Shown: positions 37,203 to 40,115 of the stretch, in pieces
Layout: each line of letters starts with the position of its first letter
Numbering within the stretch: the first letter of the stretch is position 1
DNA from: a virus
Length of the DNA: 64,000 bases
Reading direction: 5' to 3' (one strand)
Virus record (IMG/VR): IMGVR_UViG_3300042863_001519
Coordinates: 1-64,000 of that record
Translations under genes and position numbers: made by a program
The notes under the pieces: model-generated
Told to the model about the DNA's origin: nothing
The model's input: only the letters and a program-made list of their open reading frames with translations
The model's database searches: none

Positions 37203-37571
37203 TTAATTGATTACTGCTTTAAAGATTTCTTTTACTTTGGCATCTAGTAGTTCCTTGTTATCTGAAAGTACACCGTTAAGTATCTTGTTACCTTGACTTT
37301 GCCATCCAAATGAGTGTGAGAAGAAATCAGATAATTTTACTTGTTTGATTGTCTCTTGTATATGCTCATTTAATAGTTCTTTAAAGTTGGGTATCATATC
37401 CTGTACACCTTCTTTTACTAGATCTTTTGCCAGTTTTCCCATAAGCACTCTTCCTCTTTCACCAGACACTGATACATCTCCTACACAGTTCCTGACATGC
37501 TTTCTTATCTCATCTGTCACTATTTGCTTTATCTCTTCTTCTGAGAGATAGTCTTCTATTTTTATTTCCAT
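37203..37571 (-). CDS. Hypothetical protein
   Basis: 122-aa ORF in the operon. Confidence 0.65.
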   Translation of the reverse strand: MEIKIEDYLSEEEIKQIVTDEIRKHVRNCVGDVSVSGERGRVLMGKLAKDLVKEGVQDMIPNFKELLNEHIQETIKQVKLSDFFSHSFGWQSQGNKILNGVLSDNKELLDAKVKEIFKAVIN

Positions 37572-37584
37572 TTTTTATAGTTAA

Positions 37585-38694
37585 TTAATCAAGAAAATAT
37601 GCACCTGATGTTACTTGCTGGTATATCTCTTCCTTGATATCTTTCTTTCGAGGAAGGGTGCGAAAAATCCCATATTCCGGTTGTAGTGCCATAGGAAACT
37701 GTACACCATTTGTACCAAAGGAGTTTTTGAGAATGTGTAATGATCTGTAATAGGTTTTGAAAAATTCATCTCTAAAACCTTTCAGTACATAACCATTCTC
37801 TTTGTGTCCATCTAAGTCACCTACAATATGTCTGTATGGTTCGAACAATGCAAGAACAACATCAGCATCGTGTTGTGTTTGAGATGAATCAGCAAAGTCA
37901 CTGAGCTTTGGTGCTAAATCACCGAGTTTCAATCTTGATACATCGGCCAGGTTACGATTCAACTGTTGGATTACAACTGGTGAGAAACCATAGATGTCCC
38001 TTGCCTGTCTCATTACAGTACTGAACTTATCAATCTGTCCTTTAGACTTCTCAAGATCCTTCTCTGGTTTTAAAATACCAATGTGGTCAACAATAACCAG
38101 TACGATGTGATTAGGATGATTAGGAACATATGTACGATCAGCAAGGATATTTTCCATGCTTTTGTTACTCTTATCCTTGTCGATAATGGTACCGTGTTTC
38201 CTTGCAAATGCCTCTAGGTAAGCACTGATACCGGAAGGGTTCTTACTGCCCTCAAATGCTATCAGCAAGTCATCTGTTTCCCATTCATCTAGTATAGAAT
38301 AATTCATCTGTACCAAAGCATACTCCTGGTCATCCATCTTAAAGTTCTTCTGCCGACTCAATAGTTTTTTAGGTGGTATAGGAATACCCTGTTCTGTGAA
38401 TATCTTTCTAGCCAACCATCGTGCACTGTACTGGTACATCTTACGTTCCATACCAAACAGAATGATACTCAACTTGATATCAGGACTTTTGTTGTTCAGA
38501 TACCACTCTATAGGTCGTATCATGAACATATCTTGTGCCAAAGTGCTCTTGCCTGAGTTATGTACCAGTATTGGATCTTTTTGTGTTGCCAGATAGAAGT
38601 TGTTATTATCTTCTACCGATATGTCATATGTTGTTTCGTAAGGAATCTCCTCAAATGAAACAATATCCTGAAGATTTATAACAGATGCTTCCAT
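37585..38694 (-). CDS. dnaB: Replicative DnaB-like helicase, C-terminal half: split-intein C fragment (46 aa, 38694-38557) fused to the C-extein
   Basis: TYDISVEDNNNF...ILVHN|SGKST gives intein blocks F and G; then FGME, VIVDHIG Walker B, QQLNR, DADVVLAL, LKN. Confidence 0.92.
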   Translation of the reverse strand: MEASVINLQDIVSFEEIPYETTYDISVEDNNNFYLATQKDPILVHNSGKSTLAQDMFMIRPIEWYLNNKSPDIKLSIILFGMERKMYQYSARWLARKIFTEQGIPIPPKKLLSRQKNFKMDDQEYALVQMNYSILDEWETDDLLIAFEGSKNPSGISAYLEAFARKHGTIIDKDKSNKSMENILADRTYVPNHPNHIVLVIVDHIGILKPEKDLEKSKGQIDKFSTVMRQARDIYGFSPVVIQQLNRNLADVSRLKLGDLAPKLSDFADSSQTQHDADVVLALFEPYRHIVGDLDGHKENGYVLKGFRDEFFKTYYRSLHILKNSFGTNGVQFPMALQPEYGIFRTLPRKKDIKEEIYQQVTSGAYFLD

Positions 38695-39221
38695 GTTCTT
38701 TTTTGTATTATATTTTTAACAACATCAACTGTAGTTCCAAACTTGTCAGCAAGTTCCTTTCTTGTCATACACAATTGACCATTCTCATCATACTTGTTCT
38801 TTCTCCCATGCTTCCACAACTTTCTCATCTCTATCACATCTTCATCTTTTAAATTAGTGTGAGGGTTTCTTTCACCTGTAATGTTTCTTCTTTTACAAGT
38901 AAATGACCATTTCTGATTCTCACTTGCTGTACACCACTCCAAGTTAATAAGCCGATTGTCTGTACGGATATGGTTAATATGATTTACCTGTGGCTTGTTT
39001 TCAGGATTAGGAAGAAATGTTTTTGCTACTATCCTGTGGACTTTTACAGTTTCGATTTTCCCCTGATCATTTTTTAACATTGTTCGGAGATAACCTGAAC
39101 CATCTAAAGCAGGTTTCATTATTCTTTCCTGTCCTGTATTTTTCCAGTTGTAGGTCTTTATTTCACCATCTGTACTAACTTCATAACTACTGTATCCCGG
39201 TATCTTTTTCCATTGCTTCAT
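38676..39221 (-). CDS. NUMOD4-HNH homing endonuclease, free-standing between the intein halves
   Basis: WKKIPGY..YEVSTDG (NUMOD4); VHRIVA..F...QVNHINHIRTDNRLINLEWCT..EN. Confidence 0.93.
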   Translation of the reverse strand: MKQWKKIPGYSSYEVSTDGEIKTYNWKNTGQERIMKPALDGSGYLRTMLKNDQGKIETVKVHRIVAKTFLPNPENKPQVNHINHIRTDNRLINLEWCTASENQKWSFTCKRRNITGERNPHTNLKDEDVIEMRKLWKHGRKNKYDENGQLCMTRKELADKFGTTVDVVKNIIQKRTWKHLL

Positions 39222-39636
39222 GTTGCAAAGATAGTAATAAATCTTTGATTTTCACAAACTTTTCCCCGGTAAAAAATTCATGATTTTCGGTTACGTTTAT
39301 AACTGTTCCGTTTTTCATTTTTATTCTGAGTAGTTTGTCAACATGAGTCTTATGAGTTATGGTATTGGTAACAGTTTTATACTCATTAACCTTGGTCTTC
39401 AGATTATAAGACAATACCTTATCTCCTACTTTTATTTGAGAAATAGGCATTACCCCTTGTTCTGTATGAACCAACTGTTCTCCAGTAAAACAACCTGTTT
39501 CTCCCCCAATAACATAACCTGTATTTTTAGCAATATCAATATAATCACCTACCCTGTCATAAGGTACAGGTATAATACCGGCTTTACCGTTTCTACCGTT
39601 CTCAATCTCTTTATGTAATTGCTCTGATAAACTCAT
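39187..39636 (-). CDS. dnaB: Replicative helicase, N-terminal half: 48-aa N-extein fused to split-intein N fragment (101 aa, from Cys at 39492)
   Basis: VIGGETG|CFTGEQLV gives intein block A; INVTENHEF gives block B (TxxH); stop follows. Confidence 0.92.
   Translation of the reverse strand: MSLSEQLHKEIENGRNGKAGIIPVPYDRVGDYIDIAKNTGYVIGGETGCFTGEQLVHTEQGVMPISQIKVGDKVLSYNLKTKVNEYKTVTNTITHKTHVDKLLRIKMKNGTVINVTENHEFFTGEKFVKIKDLLLSLQHEAMEKDTGIQ
39226..39258 (-). promoter_or_regulatory. Bacteroidota sigma70-type promoter for the HNH gene, embedded in intein-N coding sequence
   Basis: TTTG (39258-39255), 21-nt spacer, TATCTTTG (39233-39226), 4 nt before the ATG. Confidence 0.7.
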
Positions 39637-40115
39637 TATGCACTGTTTGATTCCGTATCATCGGAAAGTTCCTTTAACTCTTCATCTTTCCAGTATACAA
39701 ACTTACCACTGTTTAGATATGCAACAGTAGCTTTCATGTATTGGAAATCATTGTACGTTGGGTCTTTGTGAGTATAACTTGTTACCTTTCTTGACTCTAT
39801 TTCCACTTTGAGGCAGTAAAGCATATCACTATCATCAAAACCTGCTGCTTTCTTTGCTTTATTGTATGTCTCAAATGTTTTTGCTTTGTCATCTCTCAAA
39901 GCCCTTGTACCCTTAAACGTCTTTCCTTTAAACACAAAATTCATGCTTGCCGGGAATGTACACCACCACTGTTCAAACTCTTCAGGATATTCTATATTCT
40001 TTTTGTTCTTCTCTCTCACTGGCCTGTATTGCTCATGCCACTCCTCGTAACCACCATCAGGATTAGCCTCTAAAAAGACTTTGATGTTCTTAAATTGCTG
40101 TAGTGTAACTGACAT
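39636..40115 (-). CDS. Replication initiator / helicase-loader-like protein
   Basis: FEQWWCTFP...YMK..VAYLN..KF pattern; coupled to dnaB. Confidence 0.55.
   Translation of the reverse strand: MSVTLQQFKNIKVFLEANPDGGYEEWHEQYRPVREKNKKNIEYPEEFEQWWCTFPASMNFVFKGKTFKGTRALRDDKAKTFETYNKAKKAAGFDDSDMLYCLKVEIESRKVTSYTHKDPTYNDFQYMKATVAYLNSGKFVYWKDEELKELSDDTESNSA

Follow-up and report, generated by a model that had tools for sequence, protein, structure and literature searches.

The stretch of DNA analysed here, called the window, comprises 64,000 nt (positions 1 to 64,000 of IMG/VR record IMGVR_UViG_3300042863_001519) and comes from a lake-water crAss-like phage. The DnaB-type helicase of this phage is encoded as two genes, separated inside the Walker A motif (GETG|SGKS) by a 936-bp cassette that carries the two halves of a split class-1 intein with a NUMOD4-HNH gene between them. 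The cassette is missing from sister phages. The element adds a case, this one with an HNH nuclease, to the fractured-gene design described by Dassa et al. 2009. The best-supported reading, and in our judgement a highly probable one, is that the two gene products are joined by protein trans-splicing, which would restore the Walker A loop. We infer this from the class-1 splicing residues, the modelled HINT fold, the lack of a second helicase in the record, and the disruption of the P-loop that would otherwise result, since 147 foreign residues in GETG|SGKS would be incompatible with a P-loop.

All features of the locus are on the minus strand. Gene 1 (39187..39636, 149 aa) has an ATG that shares bases with the stop codon of the open reading frame (ORF) upstream (TAATG), and it ends with TAG at 39187-39189. 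Its 48-aa N-extein (39493..39636) ends in YVIGGETG, the first half of Walker A, and matches residues 1-48 of intact 371-372-aa helicases. The 101-aa intein-N that follows (39190..39492) starts with Cys1 (CFTGE), contains block B (TENH), and has the tail ...KIKDLLLSLQHEAMEKDTGIQ. Gene 2 (37585..38694, 369 aa) begins with a 46-aa intein-C (38557..38694), which has its own ATG, block F (TYDISVEDNNNFY), and block G (ILVHN), and continues as the 323-aa helicase C-extein (37585..38556), the first residue of which is the Ser+1 nucleophile in SGKS, the second half of Walker A. The NUMOD4-HNH gene (38676..39221, 181 aa) is free-standing, with a start (ATG) and a stop of its own; it is read in frame +1 with respect to the helicase and shares 35 nt with gene 1 (intein-N) and 19 nt with gene 2 (intein-C). 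The whole mobile cassette thus spans 38557..39492, or 312 codons. A preliminary description of this DNA had claimed the broken Walker A motif with these gene coordinates, frames, and overlaps, and re-reading the ORFs confirmed it in full. Its proposal of a naturally split class-1 intein in a DnaB-type helicase, with an out-of-frame HNH gene between the halves, is likewise borne out by the Pfam matches, the block residues, and the frames.

The ATG of intein-C is made of an A followed by TGG, the codon for a conserved Trp near the C-terminus of the HNH protein, and the conserved tail of intein-N (...MEKNTG-stop) is the start of the NUMOD4 domain (WKxIPGY) read one base earlier. In the interval from gene 1 to gene 2, the frame that they have in common is closed by 19 stops, with all three stop codons represented; read-through or recoding of a stop thus cannot connect the two genes.

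Gene 2 matches DnaB_C in Pfam with 36.8 bits, compared with a cut-off of 27, and the structure matches of the helicase are to G40P and DnaB structures with E values from 3e-5 (G40P, 3BH0) to 4e-3. The RecA-type DnaB_C domain with its Walker A and Walker B motifs places the protein in the DnaB family. The DnaB N-terminal domain is absent, which is also the case for crAss-like genes named 'replicative DNA helicase'. Gene 2 as a query gave 239 homologues, most of them 366-402 aa long and covering the extein part only. The closest intact homologues (P0002, P0004, and P0006) are 83-88% identical and read YVIGGETG-SGKSTLAQDMF without interruption. The two exteins add up to 371 aa (48 + 323), while the intact homologues have 371-372 aa and are colinear with them through the junction. 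No second helicase was found in the 94.8-kb record. A DNA search of 50,697 phage records gave short matches to the HNH motif only, and no close cultured relative among them.

The class-1 residues are all present in the two halves: C1, TENH, YDIS with the block F Asp, VHN, and S+1. In a 22-row alignment of the family, Cys1, the T..H of block B, the block F Asp, the HN pair, and Ser+1 are invariant. Gene 1 matches the Pfam families PT-HINT and Hint above their cut-offs and covers positions 10-84 of the Intein_splicing profile; gene 2 covers positions 120-155 of that profile, below the cut-off. The break in the intein lies at the canonical endonuclease-insertion site. The charges of the halves are opposite, as had been counted by hand in the preliminary description: intein-C has 9 D/E and 1 K, for a net charge of -8, and intein-N has 14 K/R and 12 D/E, for a net charge of +2.

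The fold was modelled with AlphaFold2 from a read-through construct, intein-N, linker, and intein-C, with the stops entered as Gly and the 22-row family alignment as input. Residues 1-100 and 271-318 of the construct are the two halves, with predicted local distance difference test (pLDDT) values of 81-92 for intein-N and 74-91 for intein-C, and the 170-residue linker between them is disordered. In this model, the two halves together make one complete HINT fold. Comparison of the model with the PDB by VIA structural search gave the NrdJ-1 split-intein fusion (Z 15.9, root-mean-square deviation 2.7, 132 residues aligned), NpuDnaB (Z 15.6), and gp41-1 (Z 14.9, 31% identity over 123 structurally aligned residues).

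In IMG/VR, the full split layout is found in seven contigs (L001-L007) and an empty site in 27 (L008-L034). The preliminary description had recommended a search for intact, contiguous, and split alleles, of which intact and split ones are thus found there. With the window, the seven occupied contigs, which are independent and stem from different samples, make up what is referred to below as the eight alleles. The occupied contigs are 79-98% identical to the window in nucleotide sequence, gap-free over 2 kb, and keep the three ORFs, their frames, and both overlaps. When the 936 bp from 38557 to 39492 are excised, the window is 96.9% identical to L008/L009 over 2.5 kb, straight through the junction, and the empty site in these two contigs reads GGETG|SGKS. 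In the 21 bases on each side of the site, the window and L008/L009 differ only at two wobble positions, which touch the insertion point. Contigs of four further public runs, three of them riverine metatranscriptome libraries, are free of insertions, deletions, and joints; among them, contigs of 995 nt and 894 nt span the cassette. The three-ORF layout is not an assembly artefact. L008/L009 also have about 245 bp (L008:4484-4729) that are missing from the window at about 37217, between the ORF at 37203-37571 and an AAA_24 ATPase gene, a second indel between these near-identical phages.

Nei-Gojobori estimates of the ratio of nonsynonymous to synonymous substitution (omega) were made for the occupied alleles. 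The values are 0.06-0.08 for intein-N, 0.04-0.10 for the HNH gene, 0.02 for intein-C, and 0.05-0.07 for the exteins. With omega in the range 0.02-0.10 throughout, all five pieces are maintained as proteins by purifying selection. When the window is compared with L001-L004, the cassette is 91-100% identical and the exteins are 80-90% identical, and the synonymous divergence of the cassette is two- to fifteen-fold lower; figures of 97-100% for the cassette go with 82-90% for the exteins. Such a pattern is characteristic of an element that spread among helicase alleles after these had diverged. One RNA-library contig departs from the window exactly at the border between intein and C-extein and still encodes GKSTLAQDM, with other codons; we read this contig as the same cassette in another allele with a recoded extein. 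The +1 codon is GCG (Ala) in the empty allele L023 and TCA (Ser) in the occupied alleles L005/L007, with flanks that are otherwise identical, and TCA stands at Ser+1 in all eight occupied alleles. From this comparison, the cassette seems to bring its own nucleophile codon with it, leaving an Ala-to-Ser scar at a variable position of the P-loop.

The protein encoded by the middle ORF matches NUMOD4 (41.4 bits) and HNH_3 (40.1 bits) in Pfam, both above the cut-off, and PHROG 59 with E 5e-44. It is similar to I-HmuI (PDB 1U3E; phmmer E 1.3e-6) over residues 3-109, and the NH...N...N motif is kept. It therefore has the NUMOD4 and HNH_3 domains and the H-N-N catalytic residues of I-HmuI-type enzymes. 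As with I-HmuI, N-terminal NUMOD4-type strands are combined with an HNH motif; however, I-HmuI is encoded in an intron, that of the SPO1 DNA polymerase gene, whereas the gene of the window protein stands free between the halves of an intein, and the activity and target of the protein are putative. The cassette is probably moved by this I-HmuI-like HNH endonuclease, and it is from the pattern of presence and absence that we infer the protein to be the homing nuclease of the cassette. The observations that bear indirectly on homing are the exact presence/absence polymorphism, the younger age of the cassette relative to the exteins, and the co-converted wobble bases and Ser+1 codon. In L001, which is the same contig as L057, an in-frame stop leaves the HNH ORF (L001:3416-3943) with 145 aa; the intein halves are both intact, and the allele is 97% identical to the window. 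The nuclease of this allele appears to be decaying after its spread, as expected late in a homing cycle.

The proposed mechanism is as follows. The only DnaB-type helicase gene of the phage would have been invaded inside its Walker A codons (G-E-T-G | S-G-K-S) by the 936-bp cassette, that is, by a split class-1 intein with an I-HmuI-like NUMOD4-HNH gene between its halves. Two polypeptides would then be made, one of 149 aa (N-extein and intein-N) and one of 369 aa (intein-C and C-extein), and the basic intein-N and the very acidic intein-C would associate to form one HINT domain. Splicing in trans would use Cys1 and Ser+1 as nucleophiles and TENH of block B, with Asn46 of intein-C cyclising last, to give a helicase of 371 aa in which the P-loop is whole. 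The HNH protein, translated separately, would presumably cut or nick alleles with an empty site during co-infection, and repair after the cut would copy the whole cassette, together with its TCA codon for Ser+1, into the empty allele.

Is splicing needed to explain these features? The intein halves could instead be non-splicing and serve as a non-covalent clasp for two helicase fragments, as in the Aeh1 NrdA-type pieces or in relic half-inteins. Non-splicing fractured genes are known (PMC2677866), but the splicing residues here are complete and invariant across the family, omega for intein-C is 0.02, and 147 foreign residues between GETG and SGKS are hard to square with ATP binding; this explanation is therefore unlikely. 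We give still less credence to a dead helicase gene, with another phage helicase or one of the host serving replication. It would fit with a record that is only about 74% complete, and the nonsense codon in the HNH gene of L001 indicates that decay in the cassette can occur. However, the extein omega of 0.05-0.07 holds across the occupied alleles, none of the eight has a frameshift or stop in the helicase, and the 94.8 kb contain no second copy.

Two further explanations have almost no probability left. Because genes 1 and 2 are in one frame, and because inteins whose HNH is in frame are known (10.1101/2025.01.02.630785), two compensating indels might conceal a contiguous intein with an in-frame HNH domain. 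The preliminary description had called for indels to be excluded, and none are seen in the eight alleles, which are 2-21% diverged and share the same frames without a gap over 2 kb, or in the contigs of the four further runs. Furthermore, the HNH ORF starts at an ATG and ends at a stop of its own, and the halves are in different frames at related loci, so an artefact of this kind is effectively refuted already. Equally improbable is removal at the RNA level, with the HNH ORF carried by a group I or group II intron. The insert has intein blocks A, B, F, and G precisely at its borders, and the coding overlaps leave an intron structure no room, as had been pointed out in the preliminary description. 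A search of 37400-39900 against Rfam gave no intron match, only a chance-level match to a snoRNA, and the RNA-library contigs are colinear with the DNA and free of joints, although this last point is a weak one.

Several points weigh against trans-splicing as the explanation. Given the incompleteness of the record, a second helicase could lie elsewhere in the genome. Translation of gene 2 would have to begin inside the HNH gene, where its ATG is situated. As for the RNA libraries, their data are contigs, possibly from contaminating DNA, and hence cannot prove transcription. The AlphaFold2 model contains an artificial read-through linker and was made with an alignment that includes contiguous relatives, and it speaks for compatibility of the fold, not for pairing of two separate chains.

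The fractured genes described by Dassa, London, Stoddard & Pietrokovski 2009 (PMC2677866) include gp41-1 to gp41-9, NrdJ-1, IMPDH-1, NrdA-2, and others. As in those cases, a phage replication gene is divided into two ORFs on the same strand, each with one half of a split intein, and an endonuclease gene stands free between them. Here the two ORFs correspond to one intact homologue, with blocks A and B in the first and blocks F and G in the second, and the 3' end of the homing endonuclease gene between them overlaps the downstream start by 19 bp, compared with 6-69 bp in the published set. Each set also has an allele without a nuclease, gp41-7 in the published set and L071 in the family of the window. 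The nuclease differs, being of the NUMOD4-HNH type in the window and GIY-YIG or Vsr-like in the earlier cases, for which the fracturing of genes by HNH nucleases was a prediction only. The host is also different, a crAss-like phage of Bacteroidota-type hosts. The published gp41 inteins sit outside the P-loop, with gp41-1 to gp41-7 inserted at position 356 of P-SSM2 gp41, whereas the window insert interrupts Walker A at about residue 48 of the 371-aa helicase. The sequence resembles that of gp41-1 only marginally (phmmer E 0.23 to 6QAZ), and the window intein falls outside the gp41-1 allele group, the members of which are 89-100% similar to each other.

Classic P-loop inteins, those of TerL, DnaB, and other ATPases of phages or bacteria, likewise interrupt the Walker A motif, after the invariant Lys and before the Thr/Ser (GK|T; Kelley et al. 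2016, PMC5050341). The site in the window is a different one, G|SGKS, two residues upstream, where the Ser before GK is the nucleophile, and the intein is split. Contiguous relatives of the window intein are found in DnaB (P0147) and in TerL (P0176, P0180, and P0234). Gosselin, Arsenault & Gogarten 2025 (10.1101/2025.01.02.630785) described contiguous inteins with an out-of-frame homing endonuclease gene of the Endo VII-like type. That layout is shared by L094-type loci in the family described below, with an HNH nuclease rather than an Endo VII-like one; their intein frame is free of stops and the intein is contiguous, whereas the window intein, with its 19 stops, is truly split. The same design as in the window is seen in the fractured uvsW gene of cultured Salmonella phages of the S16 group (SEA1, OQ927978.1; L137:2311-5040). 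In SEA1, uvsW_1 ends in an intein-N that is 37% identical to that of the window and is followed by a 291-aa ORF and by uvsW_2, which starts with an intein-C. The ORF in the middle is of a NUMOD3/TnsA-like kind and not NUMOD4-HNH, the host gene encodes the SF2 helicase UvsW, and the annotation of the record names only helicase pieces and a hypothetical protein. We found no description of the window element in the open-access literature on crAss, UvsW, NUMOD4, or free-standing HNH with split inteins. Thus, the suggestion in the preliminary description that this is a new split intein holds for its sequence, but the intein is one member of a large metagenomic family with a design known since 2009.

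The preliminary description had also argued, from a charge polarity the reverse of that of DnaE split inteins, that the pair may be orthogonal to those in use. This argument does not stand. The same polarity, with a positive intein-N and a negative intein-C, is known for gp41-1 and gp41-8 (PMC2677866; gp41-1 structure paper 10.1101/546465), and a charge-swapped N-half of Npu DnaE still spliced with the wild-type C-half (10.1101/546465). From the charge pattern, nothing can therefore be predicted on orthogonality to gp41-1, and little on orthogonality to DnaE.

Gene 1 had 2539 hits in a full HMMER search. In about 85 of the best 150 cluster representatives, the block B motif lies at most 40 aa from the C-terminus, so these proteins appear to end with a homologous intein-N, and most of these ends come after a Walker A stub, G-x-x-[GSR]. 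Scanning IMG/VR with a profile of the intein-N ends gave 80 loci. Beyond the allele group of the window, about 40 of them have intein-N, a homologue of the NUMOD4-HNH protein (E 1e-18 to 1e-67), and intein-C in three ORFs, which occur in several different frame combinations. Where the halves are in different frames, only trans-splicing can join them. The hosts, counted as distinct loci, are large terminases (22), primase-helicases (9), and the helicase type of the window (5). In the intein tree, the clade of the window is nested within the inteins of primase-helicases with support of 95/85, and the host labels need about 3 changes, which suggests few host switches. Frequent hopping between host genes was considered and is unsupported by so small a number of changes. 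Scans of IMG/VR with the protein matches P0122 and P0132 gave only intein-free alleles of those genes.

The loci of the family differ in state. In a primase-helicase at L071 (L071:2522-2958), the split halves directly follow one another, and no endonuclease gene separates them; the end of the intein-N ORF is at 2812, and the start of the intein-C ORF falls at 2809-2821. A contiguous mini-intein is found at L090. At the P-loop site shared with the window, six terminase loci (L094:598-1506, L095:2495-3418, L111:2504-3445, L115:1390-2310, L117:2369-3319, and L129:2513-3454) carry contiguous inteins that have an HNH homologue in another frame, with no stop in about 300 codons of the intein frame, which across the HNH gene reads as a charged low-complexity linker. 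Another set (L091, L102-L109, L112-L114, L118, L126, L130, and L132-L134) has ORFs that end in a related intein-N, without a homologue of the window HNH protein downstream; these loci are probably fractured genes with other types of endonuclease. With evenly balanced confidence, we propose that one cassette lineage is directed to a single codon position of Walker A (x-G | S-G-K-S/T) in three or more unrelated families of ATPase genes, among them the large terminases, the primase-helicases, and the crAss-type helicase, each time with its own Ser+1 codon. This lineage would survive as an empty site, a contiguous mini-intein, a contiguous intein with an overprinted HNH gene, a split intein with an HNH gene, with a decayed HNH gene, or with none.

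A promoter-like feature lies within the cassette. The box TATCTTTG (39226..39233, minus strand) has the form TAnnTTTG of a Bacteroidota -7 promoter-like box and is located 4 nt before the ATG of the HNH gene, with GTTTG 21 nt further upstream. The box is identical in all eight occupied alleles. Across the family, the exact box is found at -4 in 8 of 31 distinct loci, and TATCTTTG or a near variant is there in many members, in different host genes. We do not claim it as a promoter; the same bases are the conserved L-S-L codons of intein-N, and since the two are inseparable, promoter and protein constraints are not distinguishable.

For protein engineering, the window provides one more candidate for a fast split intein (Cys1, Ser+1, Gly-1). 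It resembles gp41-1 in charge pattern, so orthogonality is not to be assumed. If the proposal of a single lineage is true, the family would be a source of many related Cys1/Ser+1 split inteins, possibly mutually orthogonal and with minimal extein needs. For intein research, the element adds an HNH-type nuclease to the fractured-gene design, in a family that has contiguous, overprinted, and split forms. For phage biology, an essential replication gene of a crAss-like phage would be able to work only after two proteins have been joined. The main value of the system lies in the near-isogenic sisters with an empty site and in the family-wide series of states. Occupied and empty sisters make a clean natural pair in which to study what such elements cost and how they spread, and the states, if all of them are functional, would form a natural series in which the origin of split inteins by the gene-breaking model of Dassa could be tested directly.

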